35,480 nt of DNA, from positions 1 through 35,480 of the forward strand of contig JBOEGD010000029.1 of NCBI GenBank assembly GCA_050633245.1, in the 5' to 3' direction. Shown here one piece after another: positions 9,351 through 35,414 of the stretch. The notes beneath the pieces were generated by a model, which saw only the letters and a list, made by a program, of their open reading frames with translations, had not been told where the DNA came from and made no database searches. A program made the translations under genes and the position numbers. The stretch comes from Calditrichia bacterium. GTDB taxonomy: Bacteria > Calditrichota > Calditrichia > RBG-13-44-9 > J075. The first letter of the stretch is position 1, and the number at the start of each line of letters is the position of its first letter.

Positions 9351-9372
9351 AGTAAAGAACCTCGATAGAATA

Positions 9373-13991: not shown

Positions 13992-14033
13992 TAATTACCA
14001 GTTCTATATTTACTATATTTCGTGGAGAAACGA

Positions 14034-14621: not shown

Positions 14622-14643
14622 TATAATACCCCAAGGAGACCAT

Positions 14644-15504
14644 GTGAAGATTACAGGCATTCTACTCTTCTGCTTTCTGCTTTCACTTTCGTTAGCAGCA
14701 CAACCGAAGTGGAAGAAGAAAACCCCGGCTAAAAAGCTGGATCTGGAGCTTTTTCATTCGACAATGACAGCAAACTTCCCCACCACCGAGACCCTAAAAA
14801 AAGGCGATTGGGAATATGAAATTTCACACCGCTTTACCGGACGGGTAAACGATGGCTTTAGTGAACTATGGGGAATTGATGGGGGATCGCGCATCCGGTT
14901 TGGATTAAGCTATGCACTTACGGATCATCTGATGATCCGCGGTGGGCGAACCAATGTGCAGGATAATTATGATCTGTCGCTAAAATACAAGTTCTTGCAG
15001 TTGCGCAATGAGGCTTTGCCAATGGCAATGGCCATTCGGCTAGGTGGCGCATGGAACTCTGCCGAGGTTAGCGGGCGAAATCGCTCCGACTCAAAAAACT
15101 TCCAGTTTTTTTCGCAGCTGGTGGTAAATACTATTCTGCAGGAAAAATTCGCTATCGGTGTTGTTCCTTCCTATGTTTACAATAGCGACTCTTTTTCACC
15201 AGAGAAAGAATACACCTTCTCGCTGGGCAACTATTATCAGTATTACTTCAGCAGCAAGTATAGCGCTTTCGTAGAGTATAGTCCGATTATCTCCGGTTAT
15301 CAGGGCCCAATCCAATTCGGTATAACACAAAAGTCTTTCAATTCTCTATCCTATGGTTTTGACATTGAAACTGGCGGACATTTCTTTCGTTTATTGCTAA
15401 CAAACAATACCAGATTGAATACATCGCAGTTTTTGGTGGGAGGAGTTCGATCGGTAAGTGATAATGAGTGGAGTATCGGTTTTAACATTACTCGATATTT
15501 ATAG
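14644..15504 (+). CDS. DUF5777-like outer-membrane beta-barrel protein
   Basis: Signal peptide; ISHRF, WGIDG..IRFGLSYA.TD, G.DIETGGHFF.L.LTN, IGFNITR C-terminus; AAGGAG SD with GTG start. Confidence 0.8.
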   Translation: MKITGILLFCFLLSLSLAAQPKWKKKTPAKKLDLELFHSTMTANFPTTETLKKGDWEYEISHRFTGRVNDGFSELWGIDGGSRIRFGLSYALTDHLMIRGGRTNVQDNYDLSLKYKFLQLRNEALPMAMAIRLGGAWNSAEVSGRNRSDSKNFQFFSQLVVNTILQEKFAIGVVPSYVYNSDSFSPEKEYTFSLGNYYQYYFSSKYSAFVEYSPIISGYQGPIQFGITQKSFNSLSYGFDIETGGHFFRLLLTNNTRLNTSQFLVGGVRSVSDNEWSIGFNITRYL

Positions 15505-16155: not shown

Positions 16156-17268
16156 CTATTCAACCATCGATTTTTCAGCAAGTGCTAACCCGGTAGACGT
16201 CAAGGTCATGATGTTATTATCAATAGCCAACAAACCCTCGCGCTGAGAAATTCGGGTAATTTTACCTGCGAACTCTTTTTCCCAACGCAAATGTTCGTGC
16301 ACATCACGGACATGACATTCCCTCTCACGTTCCTCCGGTTTACCCTGATGGTTTAGCAAATGCACCGCTAACATCTTTTGAGCAAATTCAATACGTTGGC
16401 GCGCTTTTCTTTGTGCGATAGCAATTAGACCGCGATAAGGAGCAAAAAACAAAACGAGTCCAAATACCACACCAGTCATCGTTGCCATAGAACCGGCAAT
16501 GTTTACATCAAGAAGGTTTGCAAGCCAATAACCACTTATCGCTGAGAATACAGCAATAATAGCACTGATAACCAGCATTCGGGACAAACGATTTGTTATC
16601 AGATATGCAGCGGCGGGTGGGGCAATCATCAGTGCTACAACCAGCACGGCACCAACAGCGTCAAAAGCGCCAACTGCGGTAAGTGAAACCAACGACATCA
16701 GCGAATAATGAATGAGCACAGGTGAGAAGCCAGCGGCAGCAGCCATACCAGCATCGAATGAGGCAAACTTAAGCTCTTTATAAAAGAGTGCAATAAAGAC
16801 AATATTCAGCACCAATATGGCACTCATCATATAAGCCGCACGTGGTCCGAGATCATATCCATCCCAAACCAAACGGTCGAATGGAGCAAACGCCAACTCA
16901 CCCAATAAAACGGCATCGACATCCAGATGGATGTCTCCCGCATAGCGTGAGATAAGAATGACGCCAATGCTAAACAGTAGTGGGAAAACCAGCCCGATTG
17001 CCGCGTCCTCACGAACAAGCCGAGTTCGATGTAATGATTCTACCATTACAACAGTTAGCAAACCCGTTAAGGCTGCTGCAACAATCAGGAGCGGCGAGGC
17101 GACATCATGTACAACAAAAAATGCCAGTACAATGCCAAACAAGATAGCATGTCCGATGGCGTCACTCATCATCGCCATCTTGCGCAGAACTAAAAACACG
17201 CCGGGCAATGCGCAGGCAATTGCAACAATAACGGCAATCAATTGAATTTCCAGCTGAGCACCCGTCAT
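16156..17268 (-). CDS. Mn/Fe/Zn ABC transporter permease (MntD/TroD-like) with a C-terminal DtxR-like extension
   Basis: GVFLVLRKMAMMSDAIGHA, HLDVDAVLLGEL, YKELK..SFD, AFDAVGAVLVVALMIAPPAAA; ATGA overlap with the upstream gene. Confidence 0.9.
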   Translation of the reverse strand: MTGAQLEIQLIAVIVAIACALPGVFLVLRKMAMMSDAIGHAILFGIVLAFFVVHDVASPLLIVAAALTGLLTVVMVESLHRTRLVREDAAIGLVFPLLFSIGVILISRYAGDIHLDVDAVLLGELAFAPFDRLVWDGYDLGPRAAYMMSAILVLNIVFIALFYKELKFASFDAGMAAAAGFSPVLIHYSLMSLVSLTAVGAFDAVGAVLVVALMIAPPAAAYLITNRLSRMLVISAIIAVFSAISGYWLANLLDVNIAGSMATMTGVVFGLVLFFAPYRGLIAIAQRKARQRIEFAQKMLAVHLLNHQGKPEERERECHVRDVHEHLRWEKEFAGKITRISQREGLLAIDNNIMTLTSTGLALAEKSMVE

Positions 17269-18395
17269 TTCGTTTCTCCCGGAGGTTGTCTGAGCTCACG
17301 TGCACGAGCAATACCGCTATCAGTAAGCCCCCATAAGCCATAGTCACGCTGGGCAGCCATTCCTCTGCGAGATAATTCGCGAAGACAACGCTCAACCGCT
17401 GCCTGTCGCATATTCATAGTTTTAAGAACAGCCGAGGCATGAGCATGTTGAAGGTTACGATGCTGAAGTGCAAGTGCATATAAATCGAGTAGAACGGCGT
17501 CTATGTGAAAGTCATGGCGATTTCGCATTTGTCTTATCCAACGCCAGATGAGTCCTCTGTTCGGGGCCAGTAAGAGCGAGACAACAACGATTCCGCTAAT
17601 GAACAAGACGATGGTGGGCCCGGTCGGTAAATTGACGACAAGGCTGCTGGTTATTGCACCGCTAAGACCGGCAAGAGCACCGAAGAAAGCAGCGAGCAAA
17701 ACCATAACATGCAGCTTGTTTGTCCATTGTCTTGCTGCGGCAGCCGGAGCAACAACCATTGCACTCATTAAAACAACACCAACCATCTGCAAACCAATGA
17801 CAATGGCGATAACCAGAAGCGTCGTAAGAATCGCATCTACAATACGCATATTGAATCCAAGGCTGGCACCATAGTCTTCGTCAAAGCTAAGCAGCTTAAA
17901 CTCTTTCCAAAATATTGCGCAGCCCGTCAACACCACAATCCCGAAGATCAGCATTGTTCTAACATCTTCTGCCAGAACAGTTGCGGCCTGCCCAAACAGA
18001 AATTTTTCAAGCCCGGCCTGATTAGCATTTGGCAGCTTCTGAATATAGGTCAAGAGCACCAATCCAAACCCAAAGAAAACGGACAATACAATACCGAGTG
18101 CACTGTCGCCTTTTATGCGGGTATTGCGGACGATCATGACCATAACTAATGTTGCTACCCAGCCACTAAGCGCGGCGCCTATCAGTAGAATTAATGATGA
18201 CTTACTTCCGGTAAGCAAAAACGCAATGGCAATTCCCGGCAGCGCCGCATGTGAGATGGTGTCACCCAGTAGACTTTGCTTGCGCAAAACAGCAAACGAC
18301 CCAAGCGCCCCGCTGATAATCCCCAGCAGAATTGCCCCAAGTGCCACATTTCGCAAGGTATAATCCGTAAAGAAAAGTAATACCGTATCGATCAT
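17265..18395 (-). CDS. Mn/Fe/Zn ABC transporter permease (MntC/TroC-like) with a C-terminal DtxR-like extension
   Basis: [59 protein letters not shown]. Confidence 0.9.
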
Positions 18396-19216
18396 TTCTT
18401 GCCGCCTCCGGTAGCGGCTTTGTGCTTATCAAGCTCCGGGTGCATAAACGATACGCGGCCGCCATAGGCGGTACGTAAGTTTTCCTCGGTAAAGACTTCT
18501 GCAACCGGACCGCAGGCAATACGTCGAACATTCAGCAAAAAAACCCAGTCGAAGTATTCGTTCACCGTTTGTAGATCGTGGTGTACGACAACAACTGTTT
18601 TCCCGTTCTCTCTTAGTTCACGAAGCAATGTAATGATCGCGCGCTCAGTTGTAGCATCAACACCTTGAAACGGCTCATCCATCAAATAGATTCGTGCTTC
18701 CTGCACCAATGCTCTCGCCAGAAAAGAACGCTGCTGCTGTCCACCGGAGAGTTCACTGATCTGGCGTTTAGCGTATGCATCCATGCCTACTTTCTGTAGT
18801 GCTTCCATTGCCATATTACGTTCAGATCGTCCCGGGCGTTTAAACCAGCCCAGTTCGCCATAGCGTCCCATCATAACCAAATCCAATACGGTCGTTGGAA
18901 AATCCCAGTCCACGCTTGTTCTCTGCGGAACATAGGCAACCTGCTTACGCTGCTTTTGATAAGGCTGTCCGTGAATCTCAACTCGACCGGCAACCGGGTC
19001 GATAAGCCCGAGCATTGCTTTTATTGCCGTCGTCTTACCCGCGCCATTTGGGCCAACAATTGCCATTAACACACCGGCTGGAATTTCCAAATCAATATCC
19101 CATAGCACTGGTTTTTCCCGGTAGGCGACTGTTAAGTCCTCTACGCGGATAGCAAATTCAGATTTGGCTATCGGTTTTTCCGATAGCGTTTTTTCAACAT
19201 CCACTTCAGTTTTCAT
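18392..19216 (-). CDS. Mn/Fe/Zn ABC transporter ATP-binding protein (MntB/TroB-like)
   Basis: Walker [28 protein letters not shown], Walker B YLMDEPF, VVHHDL. Confidence 0.95.
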
Positions 19217-19226
19217 AGCCGCACTC

Positions 19227-20168
19227 CTAAGATGCCAGACGTTTCTGTACCAACGCTCTTACAATCGTATTCACATTGTGTTTAACCATACCGAGATAGG
19301 TTCCCTCAGCAGTTCCGGGATTGCCCATTGCATCGGAGAACAAGCTCCCGCCGACAACAACCTCATGACCGCGCGAACGAACTGCAGCCTGCAAAGCTTC
19401 GATATAGCGCGGTGGTACAGAAGTTTCTACAAAGATTGCCGGAATCTTACGCTCTACGATAAACTTGGCAAGGTTTTGCACATCGGCAGCACCGGTTTCA
19501 GAAGCAGTGCTAATTCCCTGTAGTCCACGAACCTCGAAACCATAGGCATCACCAAAATATCCAAAGGCATCATGAGCAGTAACCAACACTCGCTGATCTT
19601 CCGGAACGGTTTGTAAAATTTTGGTAATTCGTTCATTCAGCTTCTCCAGCCTTTCACGATAGCGCAGGTGGTTTGCTTCATACACCTCGGCATGTTCAGG
19701 GTCGAATTCTTTTAGTTGCCTTGAGACATAGTCCACAGCCTTCATCCACAGAGACACGTCGAACCAGATATGAGGATCATTATTGCCTTGAAAAGCCTCT
19801 GAGCTGCGCAACAAATCTTGTGGAATCCCTTTAGCTACGGCAACTGTTTTAATACGGCTTTCCAGCTTTTCCAACACTTCGGCCATCTTGCCTTCCAAAT
19901 GAAGACCGTTGTAAAAAATAATGTCGGCGCTACTCAGGCGAGTCACATCGCCTTCGCTTGCCTTGTAAAGGTGCGGGTCGATTCCAGGCCCCATCAGTGA
20001 CGTTACTTCCAGGCGATTACCCCCAAGGTTAATAAGGATATCTCCTATCATACCGGTTGTTGCAACTACTTTTAATTGTCGTTTGCCTATTTCCTGAGCA
20101 TTTTGTTCCTGCTGCTTTCCGCAGCTCAACATCAACAATAGTATCAGGCCAAAGCCTATCAGCTTCAT
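19227..20168 (-). CDS. Mn/Zn ABC transporter substrate-binding lipoprotein (TroA/MntA-like)
   Basis: Lipobox MLSC; His3-Asp ligand set DPHLY, DPHIW, AHDAF, FSDA. Confidence 0.93.
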
Positions 20169-20213
20169 AAATCACTCCTTCAGTTTTCAACGCGATCATT
20201 TCTGGATCGCCAT

Positions 20214-20876
20214 TTATTCTTCTTCTGTTAAACGCACAAAAATTTGCTCGGCAACTTTTCGTCCCAACGTAAAGACGTTATCGCCCAACTTCACTTCCAG
20301 TGGACCATCAAATGGTGCCACGTCAACAATCGCAAATTCTGCTTTTGGATATAGATTCCGTTCTCCCAAATAACGCAGCAACTCCGAATTGTGGTCACGC
20401 ACTTCAACGACAACTGCCTGCTGGCCTTTTGCTAACTCAGCAAGCGTTAGCGAAGGTGTGTCGACCATATTTCCATCTCTATCGGGAATCGGCGAGCCAT
20501 GTGGGTCGCGAGTGGGATGCCCTAACAAGGCATCGATGCGATCTTCAACATCCTCCGAAATAACATGTTCCCAGCGCTCAGCTTCCTCATGAACTTTGTC
20601 CCACGGTAATCCCAATGCTTCAGCCAGGAACAACTCAATCAAACGATGATGGCGCAATACCTCAAGGGCGACCTTGCGTCCGGAAGGTGACAACTCTACT
20701 CCCTGATAGCGTTCATACGTTATCAGATTCATCTCCGATAGCTTCTTGACCATTCCGGTAATGGATGCCGGAGCCAACTTTAGCCGCTTTGCCAAGGCAT
20801 TTGTAGACACCTTATTCGATTCGTCCTGAATCTCAAATATCGCTTTTAGATAATCTTCTATGACTTGGTTTTTCAC
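20214..20876 (-). CDS. DtxR/MntR-family metal-dependent repressor with a C-terminal FeoA domain (probably Mn-sensing)
   Basis: EDYLKAI, LAPASITGMVKKL, RHHRLIELFL, VHEEAERWEH, DPHGSPIP; GTG start with GAGG SD. Confidence 0.92.
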   Translation of the reverse strand: MKNQVIEDYLKAIFEIQDESNKVSTNALAKRLKLAPASITGMVKKLSEMNLITYERYQGVELSPSGRKVALEVLRHHRLIELFLAEALGLPWDKVHEEAERWEHVISEDVEDRIDALLGHPTRDPHGSPIPDRDGNMVDTPSLTLAELAKGQQAVVVEVRDHNSELLRYLGERNLYPKAEFAIVDVAPFDGPLEVKLGDNVFTLGRKVAEQIFVRLTEEE

Positions 20877-23094: not shown

Positions 23095-23165
23095 TTTATC
23101 AGAACTTCTGACGCGAATCCGAATATAAAAAGAAACCCCTTTTCTCTTTATAATTGGAATCGCAT

Positions 23166-26100
23166 ATGAAGACAATCGTTAAGACGACTCTTATTCTGCT
23201 GCTATCTATCTGCCTGCCGCAACTGCTAAGCGCGCAATCGGTAAAGAAAGTATTACCGCCAGCCAAGGATGGTCCTTCCGGTAATGCAATAGACGACTAC
23301 AGCATGTTTAACATCAACAATGTATCACTGCGTCTGTATGCCGACGGCAATATTAACAATGCACTTGACGCGAATAACAACAATTTACCAGCCGTTGTTT
23401 ATCCACGTGGTAAAACTTCGGTAATTTATTCCTCTGGACTAATCTGGGGAGGCAGAGTGTTAGATGGCGATTCAACCAAGCCTGCCATTCGCACAGGGGG
23501 CCAACGCTGGAGCGCCGCAACCATTCCCGGGCCGATTTTACAAAGCGGACCTGATCCGATACCGGGTGATCCGGACTTTCCAGTATATCGCATTCGGAGG
23601 GACTGGCAGTCGCTAACCGGCAGCAGCATAGAAATACTTCGCGATGCAGCAGATCTTTATGGAGTTGAACTTTCTGAGGTTACCCCACAGCAAGCGCAAC
23701 AGGTTCTGGATGATTACGTCCATGACTGGAATAACTGGCCGGTGCATCTGGGCGCACCATATGAAGACCTGAACAATAATGGCAGCTATGAACCCAGCAT
23801 CGACCGACCCGGCATTGCTCATGCCGACCAGGTACTCTGGACAGTGTGTAATGATTTAGATACATCCCGCTCAATTTGGATTTGGGGTTCTCCGCCAATT
23901 GGCCTCGAAATTCAAACAACAATTTGGGGTTACGCACGCCCAAACTCATCGCTGAATGAGATGATCTTTCAACGGTATCGTATTATCAACAAATCCGGAT
24001 TCCCCATTGACTCAATGTTCGTTGGCAAATGGACAGATGTCGACATAGGTAGTTTTAATGATGATCTCATTTCCAGCGACTCTTCCCGAGAAATGACATA
24101 CGGCTACAACGGTAAAAGCATCGACACTGACTTTGCCGCAGTAGGACTTGCCCCCGCAGCATTTGGCCATTCATTACTTCAAGGTCCGACAATTACAGCA
24201 TCTGAAGACTCCGCGACTATCGGTTTTCGACGCATTTCTGGATTCAAGAATCTTAACATTACCTCCTCGCAAGTCATTGCTGGATTTGGACAGGGCAAAC
24301 CACCATATGGATACGAGTTAACTGAAAAATGGTATAACGTATTGAACGGCTATGTGCCATCAAGCTTTTCATCCCCACCAATTCCATGGTATATAGGATC
24401 TGGTCCACAGCGTGGTTCGCCAACACATTTCCCGCTCAATGGCAATCCCGTAAACACACAAGGGGATGTTGATGGATACGGTGACAACCTACCTCCCGGC
24501 GACCGGCGTATGGGACTACACTCCGGTCCCTTCTCAATGCAGCCAGGAGATATGCAGGAAATCATTATTGCCGGTATCGGCGGCTTGGGCGGCACGCACC
24601 TGGAAAGCATTGTAAAGCTACGAGAGAACTATACAGTTGCACATGGACTGCAAAAATCGCTGTTTGAAGATATCCCCACTCGCGTAGACTTTCAAACAAG
24701 AGTAGATTACCTTAGCGAAACTTTCAGTCGCATTCGCTTTCGCGCAGTGAACTCCGACGCCACTGAAATGAGATTAACACTGCGCCAGCTCGGAGGGCAG
24801 GTACTCGCAGAGATGGATCTCTTTGACGATGGAAATCATAACGACGGCGCCGCTAATGACGGAGTTTGGGGTAACGATTATGTGATGCCGCCCTACCCGA
24901 TGGGACTATCGGCCGATCTGGACGTCACCTATGATGGATTTGATTTCTGTTGGGAAGGAATTGCTGAGAACATCAGCACCAGCGGCCCGGTAGAGGTAAC
25001 AAACTTTTTTATCGGCTCGGACAATCTGAACCGTGATGGCATTGTGAACCCCGGAGAAGACGTGCGCTATACCCTTGAGGTGAGCAATACCGGAGACTTT
25101 GACTATACAGCAGTAAACCTGATCCAGCTTTCCTCGCCCCAGCCTGATATAGTAGAAAATCTGAACATGCGCCTGCGCTATGAACCCCTTAAGGTCGAAA
25201 CGCTACCGGCCAACAGCAGCTTCAGCTGGCCGTATGATACAACATCGAATGCATATTTCTCTTTTCGCATCAATCCGGCCTATGCGGGGAACGATAGTAT
25301 TCAGCTGGTTTTCCGCTTTGCCGACACCAGCGGCAACGCTTGGCTGGATACGTTATCGGTTTTTGTAGAGCAGTATCAGAATCCGCCGCAGGACTATCTG
25401 ATGACTAAAACAGCTGGATCTGCTGAAGGCAATCTCGGTTATCGGGTGGTCGATCCGGCAGCGCTCACCGGTGACTCTTACAAAGTCAGCTTCAATGACA
25501 CAACACATTCTTACAAAGTTCAGTATGAAGTAAAAAATCTGAACACCGATTCTGTTTTAGCGAGTATGCAGGATTTTCCCGATGTACTCACCCATAATAC
25601 AAATCCGATAGATGGCTTTATTATCACACCCGGCACATTACCAAGGAGAACTGTAGTGGGGCCCTGGGAATGGTTTGGCGGCGAACGCTGGCTTACCGGG
25701 GTAAATTGGGGTGGCCAAACATTTTGGGGCGGTGCCTCCCTGGGGGGTGATTTCTTTGGAACCACTTTGGGAAGAGCCGATAGCAACTACAGCGAGGTTC
25801 GTATCGACTTCGATCCAAATATTACTACCAATGCCAACGTCTTTCGCCGCGATATGGGCTACTCACACGCTGGTCTCGGTACCTTTTACGGCGCAGCCTA
25901 TGATATTGAAGATCCGGCTAATCCGCGTCGCCTGAACATCGCCTTCGTAGAAGATGGAAGCCTGAAACCGGCAGACTTGATATGGAATCCGGACAGCATG
26001 AATTCCGGTGCGCGCGAATACCTGTTTATTATGGACAGCGATTACGATCCGATTGACGGCGGAGGCTATACTGAGACCGGTATTATTTTTGGCGGCACCC

Positions 26101-26540
26101 CTACTGTCTGGGGACTATGGACACAGCTTAAGAGAGGCTTTACCTTCCTTGAATCTTCAGGCTCATTGGAACTTTACCTAACTCGAGGCGCAGATTCCGG
26201 CACAACGTTCGAATTTACACCGGAATATTTTCTCGGCTCTGAAGAAGAAGAGCAGATCATACAAACATTTAATCTGGAACAGAACTATCCCAATCCGTTT
26301 AATCCAACCACATCCATTCGCTTTCAAATACCAAAGTCTGTCAAAACAACATTGACGATCTACAATGTACTTGGACAAAAAGTGAAGACGCTGGTGAACG
26401 ATAAACTGAGTGCCGGAAGCTATACGATGCGCTGGAAGGGTGTAAATGATTTCGGAAATACAGTGGGATCCGGCGTTTATTTTTATCGCATCGAAGCAGG
26501 GGATTTTGTAAAAACCAGGAAAATGCTACTGGTTAAGTGA
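23166..26540 (+). CDS. Large secreted protein with a T9SS type-A-like/FlgD-Ig C-terminal sorting domain
   Basis: Signal peptide; C-terminal F.LEQNYPNPFNPTTSIRF...IYNVLGQKVKTLV...G.Y...W.G....G..V.SGVYFYRI.......RKMLLVK; internal LFDDG.HNDG.ANDGVWG (choice-of-anchor X-like). Confidence 0.85.
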   Translation: MKTIVKTTLILLLSICLPQLLSAQSVKKVLPPAKDGPSGNAIDDYSMFNINNVSLRLYADGNINNALDANNNNLPAVVYPRGKTSVIYSSGLIWGGRVLDGDSTKPAIRTGGQRWSAATIPGPILQSGPDPIPGDPDFPVYRIRRDWQSLTGSSIEILRDAADLYGVELSEVTPQQAQQVLDDYVHDWNNWPVHLGAPYEDLNNNGSYEPSIDRPGIAHADQVLWTVCNDLDTSRSIWIWGSPPIGLEIQTTIWGYARPNSSLNEMIFQRYRIINKSGFPIDSMFVGKWTDVDIGSFNDDLISSDSSREMTYGYNGKSIDTDFAAVGLAPAAFGHSLLQGPTITASEDSATIGFRRISGFKNLNITSSQVIAGFGQGKPPYGYELTEKWYNVLNGYVPSSFSSPPIPWYIGSGPQRGSPTHFPLNGNPVNTQGDVDGYGDNLPPGDRRMGLHSGPFSMQPGDMQEIIIAGIGGLGGTHLESIVKLRENYTVAHGLQKSLFEDIPTRVDFQTRVDYLSETFSRIRFRAVNSDATEMRLTLRQLGGQVLAEMDLFDDGNHNDGAANDGVWGNDYVMPPYPMGLSADLDVTYDGFDFCWEGIAENISTSGPVEVTNFFIGSDNLNRDGIVNPGEDVRYTLEVSNTGDFDYTAVNLIQLSSPQPDIVENLNMRLRYEPLKVETLPANSSFSWPYDTTSNAYFSFRINPAYAGNDSIQLVFRFADTSGNAWLDTLSVFVEQYQNPPQDYLMTKTAGSAEGNLGYRVVDPAALTGDSYKVSFNDTTHSYKVQYEVKNLNTDSVLASMQDFPDVLTHNTNPIDGFIITPGTLPRRTVVGPWEWFGGERWLTGVNWGGQTFWGGASLGGDFFGTTLGRADSNYSEVRIDFDPNITTNANVFRRDMGYSHAGLGTFYGAAYDIEDPANPRRLNIAFVEDGSLKPADLIWNPDSMNSGAREYLFIMDSDYDPIDGGGYTETGIIFGGTPTVWGLWTQLKRGFTFLESSGSLELYLTRGADSGTTFEFTPEYFLGSEEEEQIIQTFNLEQNYPNPFNPTTSIRFQIPKSVKTTLTIYNVLGQKVKTLVNDKLSAGSYTMRWKGVNDFGNTVGSGVYFYRIEAGDFVKTRKMLLVK

Positions 26541-26741: not shown

Positions 26742-28856
26742 TTACTTCGTCGTCATCGTATACACACCGTCCCAGTCCAGCGGTGGTGGGTTGATCGCAA
26801 AGTCATTGATGCGCTTCATGTAAACACGGGAAGGTCCATCGGTTGGAAGAAGACGCAGGCAATAACGGAAACACTCAGCGGCCTTTTCCCAGTTCTGCGC
26901 CTGATAATATTTGATACCATTGTTATAGATTGGCAGCATGCTGAGAATACGTTCATCGATCTTTCGATTTTTACGCGCCATCAGCTCGAATACCTGAACC
27001 GGCTTACGCTTTCCCTTTACGCGGATCAGATCTAATGGCCTTGCTACAACGGCACGCTTCACCAGTTGGTAGGTCGACTCGCTAATCATATTCTTGGTGC
27101 CGTATTCCTTATTGGCACCTTCCAGACGCGCAGCAAGGTTCACCTCATCACCAAGAACCGTGTAATCAAACACTTTTTTCGATCCCATATTACCAATCAC
27201 CATATTACCGGAGTTTATACCGGCACGACAGGTAAGAACCGGCTTGCCTTCGCTGCGCCACTTCTTACCCAAAACCAGTAGTTTTTCCTGCATTTCCAAA
27301 GCACAAAGACAGGCATTCACGGCATGCTCTTCGTAGAATACCGGTGCACCGAACTCAGCCATAATCGCATCGCCTTCATACTTATCAATAATGCCATCGT
27401 ATTTGAAAACGATCTCGGTCATTTCAGTAAGATATTCCGTTAGCAGCACGACCAGCTCTTGTGGTTTTAGAACCTCGGAGATTGTCGTAAAACCAGCGAC
27501 ATCGGTAAAGATTACAGACAAGAAGCGTTCTTCGCCACCAAGCTGAAGTTTATCCGGCTGTTCGAGGAGCTCATCAATCACTTTTTCCGGCAGATATTGC
27601 TGGAAGGCGCCAAGTAGCTTACGCTTCTCTTTTTGCAGCTCGATTCGCTGATACACGTTTGTTGTTACCAGTCCCAGCACCATCGCCAGCGTTGGAAACA
27701 CCATATCGCCAACCAACTTCATCGCTGTAAACAAATAAACCTGAAGCAGATTATAGCCGAGTACCAAAGCGACGCTTGAAAACAACACCACCCACAGATT
27801 GTTAAAACGCACTACAAGAAACAGTATTATCCCAAGTGCAACTAACAACATGGCCAGGGTTATCATCGGGTTGATGCGCTGGTAATAACCGTTGCTCAGA
27901 ATCGAATTCAGAGCATTTGCATGAATCTCCACTCCCGGCATTTCGCGTGGTGTTCCACGATGCTCTAAAAAGGGTGTCGGGAAATTATCGTGCAGCTCGG
28001 CAACGGTCGAGCCAATAAGCACAATTTTATCTTTGAAGACGCCATCCGGCAATAAATCGTCATCAAAATAATTCAAATCAAACTCTTCGCCCAAATCGAA
28101 CTCGGCGTCATCCATTACGTTCGAAAAGGAGTAGGTTGGAAAGGTACCATCAGGTCCGGCATAGTCAATCAGGAGCGTATTTTGTTCAAATAGCGGTACG
28201 TCATAGTCACCAAAGCGGAAGGCACTGTTACTCACATCCGGCTCTAACTCCACAGCATTGCTATAGCCAACATACTTGCGCAGCAGCTCGATGCCAAATG
28301 CCGGCCAGAAGCGTTCCTGATGCAGCTGTGCCACCGGATATCGGCGATAGATACCATCTCCATCAGATTGAATTGAAACGAGCCCAACTGACCCATCAGC
28401 GGCAGTTTTAAACAGCTCAATCGGTTCCAGCGGCGCAAAATAGCTACGCAGGCGACTGGTCTGCTCCAGCTTTCCAGCCATTACAACATTGCCTCTTTCC
28501 TGAATAGCTTCGGCAAGTTCGCGATCGCGCTCCGGATACTGCTCATCCGGGCTGTCGAAAATGACGTCAATCCCGATGGCCTTGGCACCGGCACGATTCA
28601 GATTACGCACCACGCGAGCATAGTAAGAACGGGGCCAGGGCCAACGTTCGGGAAGTGCTTCAAACGACTGGTCGTCTATGGCAACAATTACAACAGGCGA
28701 GTCCGAAAGGTCTTCCACTCCACGCCATTCAAAGCGCCAGTCAACGGTTTTTAACTCAAGACTATCTAATGTGGGAATTGTCTTGCGAAGCAAGAAGGAA
28801 ATAACAAGAACCGCCGGTACGATGAGTACCAGCGTTATAAGTTTACGAAATTTCAT
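26742..28856 (-). CDS. CHASE2-domain class III adenylate cyclase with a C-terminal TPR-like tail
   Basis: N-terminal TM; CHASE2 (VVIVAIDD.S, RWPWPR, IGIDVIF, D.DG.YRR, FKDKIVLIG, PTPF, MPGVEIHA); 3 TM helices; FTDVAGFT, DKYEGDAIMA, DYTVLGDEVNLAARLE (Lys/Asp = ATP specificity); WDGVY. Confidence 0.93.
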   Translation of the reverse strand: MKFRKLITLVLIVPAVLVISFLLRKTIPTLDSLELKTVDWRFEWRGVEDLSDSPVVIVAIDDQSFEALPERWPWPRSYYARVVRNLNRAGAKAIGIDVIFDSPDEQYPERDRELAEAIQERGNVVMAGKLEQTSRLRSYFAPLEPIELFKTAADGSVGLVSIQSDGDGIYRRYPVAQLHQERFWPAFGIELLRKYVGYSNAVELEPDVSNSAFRFGDYDVPLFEQNTLLIDYAGPDGTFPTYSFSNVMDDAEFDLGEEFDLNYFDDDLLPDGVFKDKIVLIGSTVAELHDNFPTPFLEHRGTPREMPGVEIHANALNSILSNGYYQRINPMITLAMLLVALGIILFLVVRFNNLWVVLFSSVALVLGYNLLQVYLFTAMKLVGDMVFPTLAMVLGLVTTNVYQRIELQKEKRKLLGAFQQYLPEKVIDELLEQPDKLQLGGEERFLSVIFTDVAGFTTISEVLKPQELVVLLTEYLTEMTEIVFKYDGIIDKYEGDAIMAEFGAPVFYEEHAVNACLCALEMQEKLLVLGKKWRSEGKPVLTCRAGINSGNMVIGNMGSKKVFDYTVLGDEVNLAARLEGANKEYGTKNMISESTYQLVKRAVVARPLDLIRVKGKRKPVQVFELMARKNRKIDERILSMLPIYNNGIKYYQAQNWEKAAECFRYCLRLLPTDGPSRVYMKRINDFAINPPPLDWDGVYTMTTK

Positions 28857-28875
28857 TTAGACCAATACGCTCCGC

Positions 28876-31275
28876 TTAAAACGTTATGTCGTAGCGCGCA
28901 GTTATCAGGAAATCTTTAAACTGTCGATCGCCGCTATAATTAATCATGTCCGCATTAAATGAGATGCGCCCCGCTGCGGGCATTGTATAGATTAAGCGGC
29001 CATTGAATGACGTACGATTATAATCCACTTCGCTGTCCGCGATTTGCAGATCACTTGAGATCTTATTGCCGACGGAACCGAGCCGAGCATTCGTCGCAAG
29101 AACCAGCGCATCACCGAGAGCAAACAACTGATTAAAGCGATATTCCAGTCCCAAGCCAAACGTATTAAGCGCTAATTCGGCCTTGCTATTATTAAAATCG
29201 ATCGTGTTCTCGGTTTGCTGAAAACTAAACGAAAGACGCGTACGAAGTGGAAAGGAATAGCGGGTATTCAGCTCAAACTGCACCGTGTTCGACAAGTTTT
29301 CACTTCCGAGATCTGTATTATCAGTACGATTGTAGTTGATCAGATTCAGACTCAATCTGTTGTTCAAACTTGAAACCGCAAACGGCACGCTGGTTGAGAA
29401 ATTAATGGTATTGCTACGATTGTCCTCAACGAAGCCAAATGTCGAATCCGGATCGATATCATTCTTGCGATCATAATTTGTAAAGCCAACGGAGATACTC
29501 GGGAGATTGCGTATTGGAAAATAGGACAGATTAAACGATAGTGTTCGATTATCCGTTGTGCCTGGTTTGTTGTCATTCAAGTTGTTCCGATACTGCTGAA
29601 ATCGCAGATTCAGGAACAGCTGATTTTGCAGTAAACGAATATTGTCTGTGATGGCAAATCCGCGATTATCGCGCAGCAGATAAGGCTGACCAAAGGAGTT
29701 GTATTCATCAGAAACAGATTTGTACGAAACCGTCAATCTATTGTTTTTGATAAAGTTGAAGCGTGCTGTTCCGTCAAATGCAATTCCCGGAAAGACGATC
29801 AGATATTGGTTCACTGTAAGAAAACGACTGGCAAAATTGTAGGCGCCTTCAGGAATATCAATACCGAGGTTGCGCAGCGTATCGAGCGCGGTGTCTTCAC
29901 CATTACCAATGTCTGTATTTAAAAAGCTTAGATTAAAGCTTCCTTCAAGAATAATTTTATTGTCTTTGCTGGCAACGTAGAGATCCGTTCCAGCTGCGGC
30001 GGCTTCCTGTGGTCGCAGACCTTTGCGAATCGAAGCAATATCATCACTACCGCGCACCCCGCTCACGCCCCACTGAAAGTAATCCCGGTTTCCGGTACTA
30101 ATCCGTACACCGGTCAGGTTGCGTTGAAACGAGCCCGGAAGCGTGTCGTTAACACCTACAGTGGTCGTACTATCGACAATGCCTTCGATGCCACGGCGCG
30201 TAGCACCCGTTGTAAAGTCGAGGTTTAAAAATTTCATGTGTAGCTGACCATGAAAACCACGAACGCGAGTATTCTGAAGTATTAGAGCGCCATACTGCGG
30301 ATAAACATCGCCACCGGCCAGACGTAGGAATCTCTTATCCCAAAAGTTCGAGCGGAACCAAACTGAATACCGATTGATTGGCTGGAGCGCATCATCTTCA
30401 CGATTCGAGAAATAGAGACGAGTTCCAAAATTGATAGAGTTTGTGCTCGCATTCAGTCGAATGCCGGCCTTGGTATAACGATCTTCACGAAAGCCATCGG
30501 CCAGACTCTCAAACCGGTTCTCAGCGAACACATTTCCAGTCCAGAGAAGCCCGGTTGAGGGAGCAACTTTTTTCTCGATGGTTGCGCGCTCACTTGCGGT
30601 AAACTGCCATACTTTACTGGCAACCTGTCGGCCGCTGCGATCGAATAACTTCAGAGTAATCTTATGACTGCCCGGAGGAACCTGTCTTGGTGAAAAGGTA
30701 AGAAACTCATCATACATCTTTACATAGCGAGAAACGTCCCAATTATTCAGAAAAAGCTTGGTGCGCTCACCGTCGACCTGACTGGCAATTTGAAAAAAGG
30801 AAACCGTCAGCACGAATTCATTGGTATAGATGCGTTCACCGGCTTCGGGGCTAACCACCACAATTTGTCCATCACCAGAGTCGAAGCCCTGATTGGCAGC
30901 TACGGTTAGTAGCTCGCTTTCCGGAGCTGTGGCAGGGTAGCTGGTGCGTCGGCCATCGGCAAACTCCACATCCAGATAGTATTCAACCATGCCGCCCTTA
31001 TAGGAAGACAAATCGACGCTGGCTAAATAACGCAGCCCTTCCGGAGACATGCGACGTGTTTTAAAGTGATTTTCACTGAATTCACGATAATGCACGCGCA
31101 TCGCCTGAATTGGTGATCGCGAGTAATTGGTAAGATCTACTTCAAGCTGAAGCTGGCCGTCGTCATCTACATAAGGTGTAGATACGAAGCGAACTTCGGC
31201 TAATTCATTTGCAAAGACGTTACATGCAAAGAGCAAGAGTACTAATAGGGCGTTCAAAAAACGTATCATTCGCAT
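28876..31275 (-). CDS. Uncharacterised outer-membrane protein: N-terminal beta-sandwich-like domains plus a large beta-barrel
   Basis: Signal peptide; about 550 C-terminal residues of amphipathic beta-strands; ends ARYDITF (terminal Phe, BAM-type signal); TAATG-coupled to the FecR gene. Confidence 0.7.
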   Translation of the reverse strand: MRMIRFLNALLVLLLFACNVFANELAEVRFVSTPYVDDDGQLQLEVDLTNYSRSPIQAMRVHYREFSENHFKTRRMSPEGLRYLASVDLSSYKGGMVEYYLDVEFADGRRTSYPATAPESELLTVAANQGFDSGDGQIVVVSPEAGERIYTNEFVLTVSFFQIASQVDGERTKLFLNNWDVSRYVKMYDEFLTFSPRQVPPGSHKITLKLFDRSGRQVASKVWQFTASERATIEKKVAPSTGLLWTGNVFAENRFESLADGFREDRYTKAGIRLNASTNSINFGTRLYFSNREDDALQPINRYSVWFRSNFWDKRFLRLAGGDVYPQYGALILQNTRVRGFHGQLHMKFLNLDFTTGATRRGIEGIVDSTTTVGVNDTLPGSFQRNLTGVRISTGNRDYFQWGVSGVRGSDDIASIRKGLRPQEAAAAGTDLYVASKDNKIILEGSFNLSFLNTDIGNGEDTALDTLRNLGIDIPEGAYNFASRFLTVNQYLIVFPGIAFDGTARFNFIKNNRLTVSYKSVSDEYNSFGQPYLLRDNRGFAITDNIRLLQNQLFLNLRFQQYRNNLNDNKPGTTDNRTLSFNLSYFPIRNLPSISVGFTNYDRKNDIDPDSTFGFVEDNRSNTINFSTSVPFAVSSLNNRLSLNLINYNRTDNTDLGSENLSNTVQFELNTRYSFPLRTRLSFSFQQTENTIDFNNSKAELALNTFGLGLEYRFNQLFALGDALVLATNARLGSVGNKISSDLQIADSEVDYNRTSFNGRLIYTMPAAGRISFNADMINYSGDRQFKDFLITARYDITF

Positions 31276-31943
31276 TAATCCTGGATTTGCAGTCGCAGTA
31301 CTTTTTTCTGTCCGTTAGAATCGTTGAATTCAAAATCCAGCGATTTTTCTGATTCCGTATCCTCTTCATCCGGAATATCTCCGGAGTCTGTGAGGCGAAC
31401 AATCGGCAGCTTGGTTTTAGACTGAACAATGCCGGTTTGTCCTGCTCTCACCAGCACCTTGCCAGCCTTGTTTTCGACTTCTAGAACACCTTCAGTACAA
31501 ACATATTTTGTTTCCGAAGTAATCTTGTTCTGAATTACCCAGAACATTGTTCCCTTCACCGAGGCCACAGACGTTGGTGTCGTAACTTGAAAAGTGGTTT
31601 TTTGCTTAAAAATGCTGGCGAAGAATGTGCCAATCTCAACGAAGATATTTTTTTCAATGGTACTTTTTTTGCGCGTCCCTTCAATAATACAGGAGGAGTT
31701 TTCTTTTATGCGCAGCAGGCTTTTATCATCCAAAAACTTAATCGCGCAAAATGCCCCCTTGGCTGTTTTCAGCTTGTCCTTATGCTGTAAAACATAGCCC
31801 TTCTTGGCATCAACGCTTTTAACCTTCAAATTTGGCGTAATATCGACATCACCGCGGGACTTAACGACCACAGCAACGTTCTCATCTGCAAGACCGATCG
31901 CAAAGCATCCGAGTAAGATAATTGCGAAGCAGGTAAATTTCAT
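31275..31943 (-). CDS. Periplasmic FecR-domain protein lacking the N-terminal anti-sigma domain
   Basis: Signal peptide followed directly by AVVVK.RG.V, L...D.LKT, I.F.DD.S.LRI.ENS, F.VTTPTSVASVKGT.FWV, EG.LEV.N..G.V.V.AGQ. Confidence 0.85.
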   Translation of the reverse strand: MKFTCFAIILLGCFAIGLADENVAVVVKSRGDVDITPNLKVKSVDAKKGYVLQHKDKLKTAKGAFCAIKFLDDKSLLRIKENSSCIIEGTRKKSTIEKNIFVEIGTFFASIFKQKTTFQVTTPTSVASVKGTMFWVIQNKITSETKYVCTEGVLEVENKAGKVLVRAGQTGIVQSKTKLPIVRLTDSGDIPDEEDTESEKSLDFEFNDSNGQKKVLRLQIQD

Positions 31944-31985
31944 AGGATCAGTCCTTCCGTTCAGATTGCTTTCTAAAAGCGGGGT

Positions 31986-33200
31986 TTAGTAAACTTCAAC
32001 CTCTTTAATCGTAGCCTTTCCCTGAATTATCGCATTTAAGTATTGCAGTAACTCAGAGACTTCCAGTGCAGTGCCTTCAACGCTGATGTCGCCTGTCGGC
32101 TCAAATCCCTTTTCAACGAGTTCCTGATTGACAATGCCATAGCGTGGGCCAAGCATCTGCTGTAGAATCTGCAGAATAAGTCGCGAACTGTTTCCGGCAT
32201 TTGCTAAATCAGAAACTTTAAAACGAAAGACGTCGCTTTCCAGTTGATCTGCTCCAATAGCCGTCGGGATTACAGAGGTTATCTGCCAGTAGTATGTTGC
32301 GCCGCTACGAAGCGGGCGAACTGGTCCTACAACTTCACCAGAGGTTAATAATGGATCGCTCTCGGTGGGATATTGGAAGAAGTTTTGCTTAAATTTGTCC
32401 AGAGATAAAACAGGAGGATGGCTTAATACATCGTCGATAGATTCATCTTCGTCGTATTTCTCAAAAACCTGTAGCGTATAGAATGGAGGTTCATCAGAGC
32501 TTTGGCTGGCAAATTTCTCGGCTTGCTGAAAGCCAAAAGAAGCGGGGTCAATATCGCTTTGCCACTGAAAGAATGGGAAGAGTGTTCCCACTTCTTCAAC
32601 CTCACTATCGTTAGCCGAACGCCCGGGGAACAAAGGTTCCAAAGTGGTGGGGTTGGTGATTGTCATAACATTATCACCAAGGAACGGATCTGAAAGTGCA
32701 GCAGAGGCGCAGTCCAGACCGATTGTTTGATCACCGTAAAACATACGAACCTGATAGGTACCTGCCGGAGCACGCCCGGTTGAGAGCACCTGCGACTCCA
32801 GCTCATTAACGGTCGTAAAATCTACCGTTGTATTGAGAAAGCGAACCGGCTGACCATTTATAGAGGCAATATTCTGATTAATCGCCTGGCTGGTAAGCAC
32901 ATATTGCTGTGATGATGGAACCTGAGGAATAATATCCGATTCCGATTGGGCAATGATGTCGCCATTATAACGCACTTCAAGACACAAGATCAGATCTTGC
33001 GGCTCGTTGGAAAGATTTTGAATTTGAACTATATAGTAAGGATCTACCAGACCGGTGCGGGCAAAATCGAAGTCACCTATTGGGAAAATTTGGGCATTTG
33101 CATTTATCAGTTGCAAATCGACCTGAAAATTACCTTGTGGAAATGCCCAGAGGCTGGTAAATAGTGCGATTAGAAATGTTAATCGACGCGTAAATTTCAT
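31986..33200 (-). CDS. Uncharacterised exported beta-rich protein (Ig/FnIII-like; C-terminal half resembles DUF928-type motifs)
   Basis: Signal peptide; PAGTYQV; P.FQW...YTLQVFE...FFQYP...LRSGATYYWQI...SDVFRFKV; AAGGAG SD. Confidence 0.6.
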   Translation of the reverse strand: MKFTRRLTFLIALFTSLWAFPQGNFQVDLQLINANAQIFPIGDFDFARTGLVDPYYIVQIQNLSNEPQDLILCLEVRYNGDIIAQSESDIIPQVPSSQQYVLTSQAINQNIASINGQPVRFLNTTVDFTTVNELESQVLSTGRAPAGTYQVRMFYGDQTIGLDCASAALSDPFLGDNVMTITNPTTLEPLFPGRSANDSEVEEVGTLFPFFQWQSDIDPASFGFQQAEKFASQSSDEPPFYTLQVFEKYDEDESIDDVLSHPPVLSLDKFKQNFFQYPTESDPLLTSGEVVGPVRPLRSGATYYWQITSVIPTAIGADQLESDVFRFKVSDLANAGNSSRLILQILQQMLGPRYGIVNQELVEKGFEPTGDISVEGTALEVSELLQYLNAIIQGKATIKEVEVY

Positions 33201-33295: not shown

Positions 33296-33817
33296 TTAAG
33301 ATTCAGGTTCAATTGCTTCGAATTCCAGAATCGGTTGACCAACAGCGACCAGTGCACCTTCATCGAAATGAATTTTTTCTACAACACCAGCACGCGCTGC
33401 CTTTACTTCATTCTCCATCTTCATCGCTTCGACGATAAACAAGCGCTCACCTTTTTGGACACTGTCACCTTCGGAAACGAAAAGCTTCAACAGCTTACCG
33501 GGCATTGGGGCACCAACTTCGTTACCTGCCTCTTCACTGCCACCCGATCCACCACCAAATATGGCTGAATCCTTGAGGAGCAGATTGAAAACGTATTGAC
33601 GTCCATTTAGCGAGACATAAACTTGTTCACCATCGCGACATCCGTGTACGGTGGTGGATTGCCCATTCATCTGAATGACAAAGCTGGTTTCGCCGGATTG
33701 TTGCAGCTTACCCTGATGAGGGTTCCCATTAACTGCTGCGCTGAAATGCGTATCGCCTTCCTGCGAAAACTCAACTTCGTGAACGTCCTGTTGAAACTGT
33801 AATTTACGTAGAGCCAC
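33296..33817 (-). CDS. Biotin carboxyl carrier protein with an N-terminal BT-like domain (acyl-CoA carboxylase)
   Basis: APMPGK, V.EGD.V.KG..L.IVEAMKMENE (biotinyl Lys); GTG 33817 follows AAAGG; start uncertain (track gives 33847). Confidence 0.88.
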   Translation of the reverse strand: MALRKLQFQQDVHEVEFSQEGDTHFSAAVNGNPHQGKLQQSGETSFVIQMNGQSTTVHGCRDGEQVYVSLNGRQYVFNLLLKDSAIFGGGSGGSEEAGNEVGAPMPGKLLKLFVSEGDSVQKGERLFIVEAMKMENEVKAARAGVVEKIHFDEGALVAVGQPILEFEAIEPES

Positions 33818-33917
33818 TCGTTTTAACCTTTCACGGGCGACTTGCAAAATCTAGTCGCCGACCTTTCGACCTCGTGTGATACATATCGTCCATTTGGGAT
33901 ATTATTTTATTTAAGAA

Positions 33918-35414
33918 TCAACTCATTTGCCAATCACCAAGACTTTGCCAGGGCGTTGGATCTTCTCGATCACCTTCTGCTCGAACAGCTGTTTTCCCTT
34001 TGGAAGCAAAGGCTGCAGCAGCTAAAAGTGCCAGCACTTTTTCTGGCTCAGCAGGTTCATTCTTCCAATCGGCAAAATGCTCGGGAAGAAAGCCGGTATG
34101 CAGATCGCCACTAACAAAAGCCGGATGGTTTATCAATTCTTTCAGGAAGGCAAGAGGGGTTTCTACACCAAGAATAACATAGTCGGAAAGCGCCAGGGTA
34201 AGACGAGAAATCGCTGCTTCACGGGTTTCATCCCACACGATAAGCTTCGACAATATAGGATCGTAAAAATGCGTAACGTCCATGCCTGTTCGTACTCCAC
34301 TATCGACGCGAATTCCCGGTCCGGCAGGCTCTTTAACCAGCTGAAGCTTACCGATTGAAGGCAGAAAGTTTGTCTCGGCATTCTCGGCATAAATCCGGCA
34401 CTCTATTGAATGACCTCGCTGAGTAATATCGGATTGTTTGAAAGCCAGCTTCTCTCCACGTGCCACGCGAATTTGTTGTTTAACCAAATCTATCCCCGTA
34501 ACCATTTCCGTTACCGGATGCTCCACCTGAATTCGCGCATTTACCTCGAGAAAGTAGAAGTTCTTCTCTTCATCCAGCAAAAACTCTACTGTTCCGGCAC
34601 TGGTATAGTTTACCGCTTCCATTACGCGGCAGGCCGTTTTACCCATACGCTCACGCAATTCATCATCCAATGCGGGTGAAGGTGTTTCTTCCACAATTTT
34701 TTGGTGTCGACGTTGAATCGAACATTCGCGCTCAAATAAATGCACCGTATTACCATGCGTATCGGCTAGCACTTGATATTCGATGTGACGTGGACGCTCA
34801 ATAAATTTTTCCATATAAACTGTATCATCGCCAAATGCCGATCCGGCTTCACGCTGTCCGGCTTCTACAGCAGACATTAGATCGTCTGCATTGTGCACCA
34901 CACGCATACCTTTTCCACCACCGCCTGCTGCAGCTTTAACCATCACCGGAAAACCGATATCTTCAGCCAACTTGCGAACGTCTTTTTCCGATAGCCCTTT
35001 TATTTCGGCACCGGGAGTCTGCGGCACACCGGCATTCAGCATAGCTTCGCGCGCCTTCAGTTTATCTCCAACTTGCTCGATAGACTCAGCAGAGGGGCCA
35101 ATAAAATTGAGCCCGGCGGCGATACAGCGGCGCGCGAAGACAGCATTTTCCGAAAGAAAGCCATATCCGGGATGCAGCGCATCACAACCGGTATCTGCAG
35201 CTGCTTTCAACACATTGTCAATGTTAAGATAGCTCTCCAATGGTGGGGCGGGGCCAATCTCAACGACTTCATCTGCCGCAAGAGCATGCGGCGCCAAGCG
35301 ATCTACTTCTGAACAAACAGCCACCGTTAACAAACCCATTTCGCGACAGGCGCGAATAACGCGAACGGCGATTTCACCACGATTTGCAATCAGCACTTTT
35401 GTCATTTTTTTCAT
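33918..35414 (-). CDS. Biotin carboxylase subunit of an acyl-CoA (acetyl/propionyl/methylcrotonyl-CoA) carboxylase
   Basis: KVLIANRGEIAVRVIRAC, HPGYGFLSENA, KAAAGGGGKGMR, ERECSIQRRHQK, FLEVNARIQVEHPVTE, RIYAE, YDPILSKL. Confidence 0.95.
   Translation of the reverse strand: MKKMTKVLIANRGEIAVRVIRACREMGLLTVAVCSEVDRLAPHALAADEVVEIGPAPPLESYLNIDNVLKAAADTGCDALHPGYGFLSENAVFARRCIAAGLNFIGPSAESIEQVGDKLKAREAMLNAGVPQTPGAEIKGLSEKDVRKLAEDIGFPVMVKAAAGGGGKGMRVVHNADDLMSAVEAGQREAGSAFGDDTVYMEKFIERPRHIEYQVLADTHGNTVHLFERECSIQRRHQKIVEETPSPALDDELRERMGKTACRVMEAVNYTSAGTVEFLLDEEKNFYFLEVNARIQVEHPVTEMVTGIDLVKQQIRVARGEKLAFKQSDITQRGHSIECRIYAENAETNFLPSIGKLQLVKEPAGPGIRVDSGVRTGMDVTHFYDPILSKLIVWDETREAAISRLTLALSDYVILGVETPLAFLKELINHPAFVSGDLHTGFLPEHFADWKNEPAEPEKVLALLAAAAFASKGKTAVRAEGDREDPTPWQSLGDWQMS

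Follow-up and report, generated by a model that had tools for sequence, protein, structure and literature searches.

The contig JBOEGD010000029.1 of a Calditrichia bacterium (assembly GCA_050633245.1), which was analysed at its full length of 35,480 nucleotides (nt) and is referred to here as the window, is one of the 59 contigs of a 6.3-Mb genome and carries four tandem open reading frames (ORFs) on the minus strand at 26742-33200. According to their sequences and models, they encode an exported protein of 404 residues (gene 1), a free FecR-domain protein (gene 2), a putative outer-membrane barrel of 799 residues (gene 3) and a predicted CHASE2 adenylate cyclase (gene 4). Comparison with other genomes revealed that these genes are a conserved unit, the arrangement of which is far beyond chance. 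We consider it somewhat more probable than not (roughly 55%) that they form an envelope-spanning signalling module, in which information would pass from the barrel to FecR and from FecR to CHASE2, with cyclic AMP (cAMP) as the output.

Conservation of the four-gene order

Gene order around the barrel gene was surveyed in two samples. The first covered 16-18 kb around the best barrel match in 20 genomes with long contigs, representing all 8 families of the phylum, and the second consisted of 29 short loci. Seven genomes are common to both samples, which together comprise 42 distinct genomes other than that of the window; 24 Calditrichota loci (L051-L074) that probably overlap genomes already counted were left out of the counts. 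The genes for the 404-residue protein, FecR and the barrel were found in this order in 20/20 genomes of the first sample, followed by an intact cyclase gene in 17, by a cyclase gene in three pieces in one and by none in two. Among loci of the second sample with the necessary flank, the genes for the 404-residue protein and FecR lie upstream of the barrel in 28/28 and the cyclase gene lies downstream in 24/26. When both samples are combined, the former two are directly upstream of the barrel in 41/41 genomes with flank and the latter is directly downstream in 37/39. The two genomes in which the triad has no adjacent cyclase differ in that G082 possesses a cyclase orthologue (54% identical) elsewhere, whereas the best cyclase match in G068 is 29% identical. 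These results agree with the first-pass annotation of this DNA, which had described four co-oriented genes with gaps of 42 nt, a TAATG overlap and 19 nt, exactly as in the ORF coordinates, and had made their joint function depend on their co-occurrence in other genomes.

The barrel itself is present throughout the phylum, which is apparently Calditrichota; the closest homologues carry the source labels Calditrichia, Calditrichaceae or Caldithrix. Its profile matched 86/86 genomes, including that of the window, with E <= 1e-44 in 83. Since the best match in the remaining three (G015, G037 and G042) only reaches the level of a shorter paralogue (E 1e-12 to 1e-14), a barrel orthologue was seen in 83/86 genomes. 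Outside the phylum, the same order was detected in 16 loci labelled Ignavibacteria, Ignavibacteriales, Bacteroidota or unclassified 'bacterium', and in one case Flammeovirgaceae, in which the barrels are 19-30% identical to that of the window (27-30% in most). Where these loci extend far enough, the cyclase follows the barrel in 15/15, FecR precedes it in 14/14 and a member of the 404-residue family is found before it in 13/13. The whole barrel family is much larger, numbering 3959 representative proteins when the threshold is E <= 1e-3 and 694 when it is E <= 1e-30. In all neighbour loci examined, FecR and the barrel have a gene each, and no fusion of the two was found in the 19 longest of 150 listed barrel representatives or in the 1066-residue barrel of locus L089.

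Shorter barrel paralogues of ~575 residues, which match the barrel part only and lack the N-terminal domains, also occur in the phylum. A FecR-domain protein of 476-509 residues is encoded directly upstream of the barrel, without CHASE2, in 6 of the 12 paralogue loci, namely L099 (G006:C1), L100 (G035), L101 (G030), L103 (G014), L104 (G041) and L105 (G027). Glucodextran_B/Ig-like (immunoglobulin-like) domains are present in both FecR proteins of this second module that were scanned against Pfam (L099 and L104). Such domains are thus carried by FecR in the paralogues and by the barrel in the window, and this shuffling of domains is consistent with FecR and barrel being assembled together in the periplasm. 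Tetratricopeptide repeat (TPR), FN3 or 404-like partners are found in the remaining six loci. Among L094, L095, L096, L097 and L102, barrel paralogues adjoin proteins of ~990 residues with a 404-like segment, or long TPR proteins together with FN3 proteins; the neighbours in L095 are a BamB-like propeller, a TPR protein and a member of the 404 family. Further upstream of the FecR-barrel pair, L099 also carries genes for an SLT transglycosylase and a DUF2851 protein.

Predicted properties of the four proteins

The 799-residue protein has no match in Pfam or NCBIfam, and neither Plug, TonB_dep_Rec nor STN domains were detected in it by Pfam. Its model, with a mean predicted local distance difference test (pLDDT) score of 80.9, comprises a leader followed by two beta-sandwiches, at 26-126 and 139-228, and by a barrel (244-799) containing 26 DSSP strands from 244 to 798. 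The barrel ends in RYDITF, so that the terminal Phe noted in the first-pass annotation is indeed present, and the large beta-barrel expected there is what the protein models as. Loops following odd-numbered strands add up to 152 residues, as opposed to 50 for the turns following even-numbered strands; because long odd-strand loops and short even-strand turns are the usual outer-membrane topology, the N-terminal domains would be periplasmic. Overall, gene 3 models as an outer-membrane barrel of ~26 strands with two periplasmic Ig-like domains.

The best Foldseek match of the barrel part (236-799) is MtrB (6r2q_B, E 1e-10, query-normalised TM-score (TMq) 0.41), with which VIA-align gave a Z score of 21.6 and a root-mean-square deviation of 5.5 over 461 residues, the next chain having a Z score of 17.5. 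The nearest clusters in an ESM Atlas search with the barrel are all unnamed, and the few taxon labels among them are Fidelibacterota and Cloacimonadota. A motif, S-F-G-Q-P-Y-L-L-R-D, is found across the family at 527-536. Of seven loops in the first barrel half that are putatively extracellular, five (291-301, 325-337, 412-423, 454-496 and 522-536) have a conservation, expressed as majority fraction, of 0.54-0.69 compared to 0.53 for the strands, and the 43-residue loop 454-496 carries two helices in the model. The second half has short loops that vary for the most part (0.23-0.48); the last one, of 3 residues, has a value of 0.57.

The product of gene 2 contains a FecR domain (PF04773, residues 56-153, E 3.4e-10, 40.7 bits compared to a cut-off of 24), which is preceded by an N-terminal hydrophobic leader of ~19 residues only. 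No further hydrophobic segment, transmembrane helix or anti-sigma domain was found, nor any Cys conserved in 25 orthologues; the idea of a lipoprotein, based on the sequence LLGC at 10-13, was consequently rejected. S125-V-A-S128 and G131-T132 are invariant in the same orthologues, and an acidic linker leads to a conserved C-terminal tail, EFxDxxGxxKxL. The description in the first-pass annotation, of a signal peptide alone before the domain and a GT dipeptide in VKGT (129-132), is therefore accurate. Gly-Thr is of interest in that it was reported that Gly181-Thr182 is the self-cleavage site of E. coli FecR, as stated in the available text (PMC12036975). The two dipeptides are aligned in a weak single-sequence alignment (probability 4%), and self-cleavage at G131-T132 may be regarded as possible. 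The nearest NCBIfam models (Leptospira Lsa33, Lsa19 and LipL45) are all far under cut-off, no solved structure is matched by sequence at E <= 1, and Pfam detected no TPR in this protein or in the barrel.

Gene 4 encodes a protein with a CHASE2 domain (PF05226, residues 18-341, E 3e-64, 217.5 bits compared to a cut-off of 26.3) and a class III cyclase domain (Guanylate_cyc, PF00211, residues 447-621, E 5.6e-21, 75.4 bits compared to a cut-off of 21.9). One hydrophobic segment is located at the N-terminus (~5-24) and three lie at ~329-399, in agreement with the single N-terminal and three C-terminal transmembrane helices that bracket CHASE2 in receptors of this type; with this topology CHASE2 (~25-328) would be periplasmic and the catalytic domain cytoplasmic. 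The best solved relative is CyaB of Pseudomonas aeruginosa (3r5g, E 4.3e-38). Across 25 orthologues no substitution was seen at D452, K492, D496, T566, N573 or R577, and these residues align with the same motifs of CyaB; we take D452 and D496 to be the metal-binding Asp residues, N573 and R577 the transition-state Asn and Arg, and Lys492 and Thr566 the purine-specifying pair that marks a class IIIb adenylate cyclase. As Thr566 aligns with the DYT motif of CyaB and is Thr rather than Asp, the 'Lys/Asp' pair named in the first-pass annotation is slightly off and is most likely Lys492/Thr566; the metal Asps, the Lys and the Asn/Arg named there are invariant, and the adenylate assignment stands. 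The protein therefore looks like a competent inner-membrane class III adenylate cyclase with an intact catalytic set, predicted to produce cAMP. Its C-terminal tail, PPPLDWDGVYTMTTK (residues ~689-704; 26742-26790), is conserved, with P691, W695 and K704 invariant in orthologues, and a weak TPR match at 644-673 is below cut-off.

For the 404-residue protein, of which 36 homologues were found, there is again no match in Pfam or NCBIfam. In its model (pLDDT 83), a leader is followed by two FN3/Ig-like sandwiches (~22-183 and 184-334) and by a helical part at the C-terminus (339-392), and fold searches returned generic FN3/Ig sandwiches only (best Z 8.5; Foldseek TMq <=0.29), without a functional lead.

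At the level of the genome, only two class III cyclase genes (gene 4 and a 329-residue ORF on contig C20) and 17 matches to cyclic nucleotide monophosphate (cNMP)-binding domains were found, which suggests that the four-gene module is probably a main cAMP input. There are three CHASE2 and three FecR genes in this genome, and the locus described here is the only one where the two are adjacent.

The coordinates of the four genes and of their surroundings are given in Table 1. The overlap of genes 2 and 3 reads CAG GAT TAATG, and AGGAG, the ribosome-binding site, is located 7 nt 5' of the ATG of gene 1. Promoter-like sites (14, with 12.1 expected from shuffled sequence) are not in excess, although the sigma-70 consensus may not fit this lineage, and neither are terminator-like sites (4 compared to 9.9 expected). 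Sigma-70/ECF (extracytoplasmic function) sigma factor, Plug and TonB_dep_Rec domains are absent from the four proteins (E <= 0.1) and from 25 other ORFs of the window (E <= 1e-5), in line with the earlier statement that it contains no ECF sigma gene or TonB-dependent receptor. These 25 are most of the ORFs of at least 150 residues; the overlapping ORFs at 7091-7624 and 8667-9539, as well as all shorter ones, were left out. With regard to the metal uptake operon of the window, ORFs resembling it, judged by N-terminal sequences alone, were also seen beside the triad in G068.

Table 1. Positions of the four genes and of neighbouring features in the window
Feature	Position	Strand	Remarks
Gene 1, exported protein	31986..33200	minus	404 aa; 42 nt to gene 2
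Gene 2, FecR-domain protein	31275..31943	minus	222 aa; 1-nt overlap with gene 3
Gene 3, putative outer-membrane barrel	28876..31275	minus	799 aa; 19 nt to gene 4
Gene 4, predicted CHASE2 adenylate cyclase	26742..28856	minus	704 aa; last of the four
Biotin carboxylase and biotin carboxyl carrier protein	33296..35414	minus	498 aa and 183 aa; co-oriented, 95 nt upstream of gene 1
Exported protein with FlgD Ig-like match (E 2.3e-9)	23154..26540	plus	1128 aa; weak, borderline type IX sorting-domain match (Por_Secre_tail, 27.3 bits, cut-off 27); converges on gene 4, stop codons 201 nt apart
Metal ATP-binding cassette (ABC) uptake operon	16156..20876	minus	ZnuA-type binding protein, ATPase, two ABC-3 permeases; adjoined by a DtxR-type repressor with FeoA domain
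YceI-like protein, then DUF5777 membrane beta-barrel protein	14022..15504	plus	

A proposed signalling relay and its alternatives

The closest parallel to the cluster is found in Sinorhizobium meliloti. It was reported, in the published text available, that induction of cAMP by the signal depends on both the predicted outer-membrane barrel protein NsrA and the cyclase CyaK (PMC7529298, PMC13001267, PMC10463352), and that the barrel of NsrA spans residues 600-1200 and is its sole surface-exposed portion (PMC7529298). Searching plasmids with the window cyclase by tblastn identified cyaK on pSymB, with 32% identity over ~88% of the length. The gene that overlaps the start of cyaK by 1 nt encodes a 1190-residue protein annotated as 'FecR domain-containing protein', in which a FecR domain (66-160) is followed by TPR repeats (417-587) and, at the C-terminus, by a weak outer-membrane-barrel match; we take this protein as NsrA. 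Its family includes 521 matches, mostly of ~1200 residues and from rhizobia, which are named either FecR-domain protein or TonB-dependent receptor. The FecR protein of the window and the FecR domain of this protein are homologous (hhalign probability 98.2%, E 6e-14, 156 columns), with VKGT aligned to IRGT.

By analogy, a relay may be proposed for the Calditrichia cluster. The barrel, with or without the 404-residue protein, would serve as an outward-facing receptor, and the free FecR would dock on both the periplasmic domains of the barrel and CHASE2 and relay the state of the former to the cyclase, a job that would be done in S. meliloti by the FecR-TPR arm of NsrA within a single polypeptide. 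The resulting rise or fall of cAMP would then be read by the many cNMP-binding proteins of the genome. Considering that FecR recurs beside barrels in the paralogues and beside CHASE2 in other phyla, it may act as a connector, these two independent recurrences pointing to FecR as the hub of the module. A macromolecule or surface signal is more likely to be the cue than a small periplasmic ligand.

Several observations weigh against such a relay. The triad persists without a neighbouring cyclase in 2/39 genomes and hence need not depend on it. No signalling gene was found beside the paralogous FecR-barrel pairs in the loci scanned, which may imply a non-signalling role for the FecR-barrel unit, and the two other CHASE2 genes of the genome are on contigs without a FecR-domain match. 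With regard to the rhizobial parallel, the barrels of the window and of S. meliloti are matched with a profile-profile probability of just 0.2%, and the barrel profile has no match on pSymB. The 1190-residue protein is most probably NsrA by virtue of its position beside cyaK, its length and its barrel range, and S. meliloti can perceive the signal without SMc02177, a free FecR-domain protein (PMC5498481). Finally, the contact of FecR with CHASE2 is deduced; co-folding of FecR (20-222) with the periplasmic part of CHASE2 (25-328), using a 25-row alignment for each, gave a score of 0.00, which speaks neither for nor against binding.

The main rival to the relay is that the triad primarily serves structure, transport or surface display in the outer membrane, for instance as a porin sheath holding a partner protein in the way MtrB holds MtrA, and that the cyclase is either co-expressed with this assembly or monitors its integrity, without receiving an outside signal through it. 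This is a real, if on balance improbable, alternative that would account for the structural match to MtrB (Z 21.6, with 17.5 for the next chain), for the two genomes that keep the triad without an adjacent cyclase, and for the barrel paralogues that stand beside FecR, TPR + FN3 or 404-related proteins with no signalling neighbour in the loci scanned. Conservation of five putatively extracellular loops to the same degree as the strands would fit loops that line the lumen or hold a partner, and the NCBIfam models nearest to FecR, though far under cut-off, are Leptospira surface adhesins. However, the cyclase adjoins the triad in 37/39 and 15/15 loci, across lineages whose barrels are 27-30% identical, and FecR domains are encoded beside CHASE2 proteins in unrelated phyla, according to the available text of two reports (PMC5192318, PMC9239204). 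In addition, CHASE2-cyclase signalling in S. meliloti genetically requires the fused FecR-barrel protein, as far as described in the source (PMC7529298), and haem-binding CXXCH motifs are lacking in the FecR and 404-residue sequences.

A related and more speculative idea, which we regard as rather unlikely, retains both the sheath and the signalling: the triad would be a trans-outer-membrane sensor resembling a sheathed wire, in which the barrel encloses or holds FecR or the 404-residue protein, and the position of this partner, or its processing at Gly-Thr, reports a surface event to CHASE2. If true, CHASE2 in general would receive FecR-domain proteins instead of small molecules, and the barrel family with its FecR-bearing partners would represent a widespread outer-membrane signalling system of the Fibrobacteres-Chlorobi-Bacteroidetes (FCB) group.

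It is less probable still that the free FecR itself senses a periplasmic cue, such as the state of the envelope or cell wall, and regulates CHASE2 directly, with the barrel and the 404-residue protein as accessories. In Burkholderia, a CHASE2 kinase has a FecR partner with LysM, a domain that binds peptidoglycan, and the available text (PMC5192318) mentions no barrel among the four genes of that operon; the invariant G131-T132, with its weak alignment (probability 4%) to the E. coli cleavage site, would allow regulated processing. On the other hand, the genes for the 404-residue protein, FecR and the barrel stay together wherever there is enough flank (41 and 13 loci), the rhizobial family has FecR and barrel in one polypeptide, and the FecR-barrel pairing recurs in the paralogues. 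That the four genes are neighbours by chance or through shared transcription alone, with no common function, is hardly credible: promoter-like and terminator-like sites are no more frequent than in shuffled sequence and do not set the unit apart, but the neighbourhood counts already contradict the idea, the order being kept across 8 families and a second lineage at 27-30% barrel identity with spacings as tight as 42 nt, a 1-nt overlap and 19 nt.

Comparison with known systems

The first-pass annotation had presented the cluster as the best candidate in the window for an undescribed system, in which surface-to-cytoplasm signalling would be rewired to cAMP. Its proposal is partly supported, namely in the conserved unit and the barrel, but the system is not wholly undescribed: the parallel with NsrA, which was drawn there, is closer than had been supposed, since a FecR-barrel-CHASE2 design exists in S. 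meliloti, and published reports already place FecR genes next to CHASE2 genes in Burkholderia and P. aeruginosa (PMC5192318) and in Campylobacterota (PMC9239204). As the S. meliloti protein encoded upstream of cyaK carries a homologous FecR domain, the supposed rewiring is a split form of an existing design. The particular four-gene cassette was not described in the literature retrieved on CHASE2 and FecR, on CHASE2 since 2018, on NsrA and CHASE2, or on NsrA and cyaK.

The likeness to the MtrB sheath of the Mtr complex (6r2q) is one of fold only, in that both barrels have ~26 strands and MtrB is the best structural match of residues 236-799. The two differ in sequence (9-10% identity) and in the N-terminal Ig-like domains, which MtrB lacks; no CXXCH is present in the FecR or 404-residue proteins, and no cytochrome domain was found in the scanned proteins of the window.

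A closer analogy of logic exists with the cell-surface signalling systems FecA-FecR-FecI of E. coli and FoxA-FoxR-FoxI of Pseudomonas, which share with the cluster a periplasmic FecR-family domain encoded beside an outer-membrane barrel gene, the conserved GT and the passage of information from the outer to the inner membrane. Unlike in these systems, FecR of the window has neither a transmembrane helix nor a cytoplasmic anti-sigma domain, no ECF sigma factor or TonB-dependent transducer was found among the 29 proteins of the window that were scanned, and the predicted output is a second messenger instead of a sigma factor. The proposed relay, if true, would therefore be a form of cell-surface signalling in which the ECF sigma factor has been replaced by a second messenger.

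Exported FecR-domain proteins encoded beside CHASE2 receptors were also reported elsewhere. The BiofilmReg operon of Burkholderia encodes a LysM-FecR protein beside a CHASE2 histidine kinase, a pairing noted for P. aeruginosa as well (PMC5192318), and a cluster in Campylobacterota includes, next to a CHASE2 cyclase, genes for a phosphodiesterase, a TPR protein and a protein with a FecR domain (PMC9239204). Within what the available text of these reports covers, the partners differ from those in the window (LysM, DUF4136 and a response regulator in Burkholderia; a phosphodiesterase and a TPR protein in Campylobacterota), neither cluster is reported with the 799-residue barrel or the 404-residue family, and the link between FecR and CHASE2 is one of gene adjacency, the mechanism of which was not tested there.

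The factors recognised by CHASE2 are described as not known in the available text of one of these reports (PMC5192318), and the present cluster may be viewed as a natural experiment on this question, in that FecR is fused to the barrel in rhizobia and is a free periplasmic protein here. It may be that a FecR-domain partner, relaying what happens at the outer membrane, is what drives CHASE2 receptors, and the separate small parts of the cluster should be easier to use for binding and reconstitution than the rhizobial fusion of 1200 residues. The 404-residue and barrel proteins further define two sizeable families that have no Pfam or NCBIfam model.

The most informative comparison is that with NsrA and CyaK. 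Each of the two systems has a barrel in the outer membrane, a FecR domain in the periplasm and a class III cyclase with CHASE2 in the inner membrane, and their genes are adjacent or overlapping in the window as well as in S. meliloti. They differ in that FecR and the barrel are separate in the window, with no TPR arm detected, whereas the rhizobial counterpart is one FecR-TPR-barrel polypeptide. Two Ig-like domains precede the strands of the window barrel, and an exported protein of 404 residues is always present as a fourth component; the rhizobial signal is the plant ribosomal protein uL2. Taken together, the Calditrichia cluster is best regarded as a split form of the NsrA/CHASE2-cyclase relay, to which a fourth protein has been added and whose barrel shows no detectable relationship to the rhizobial one.

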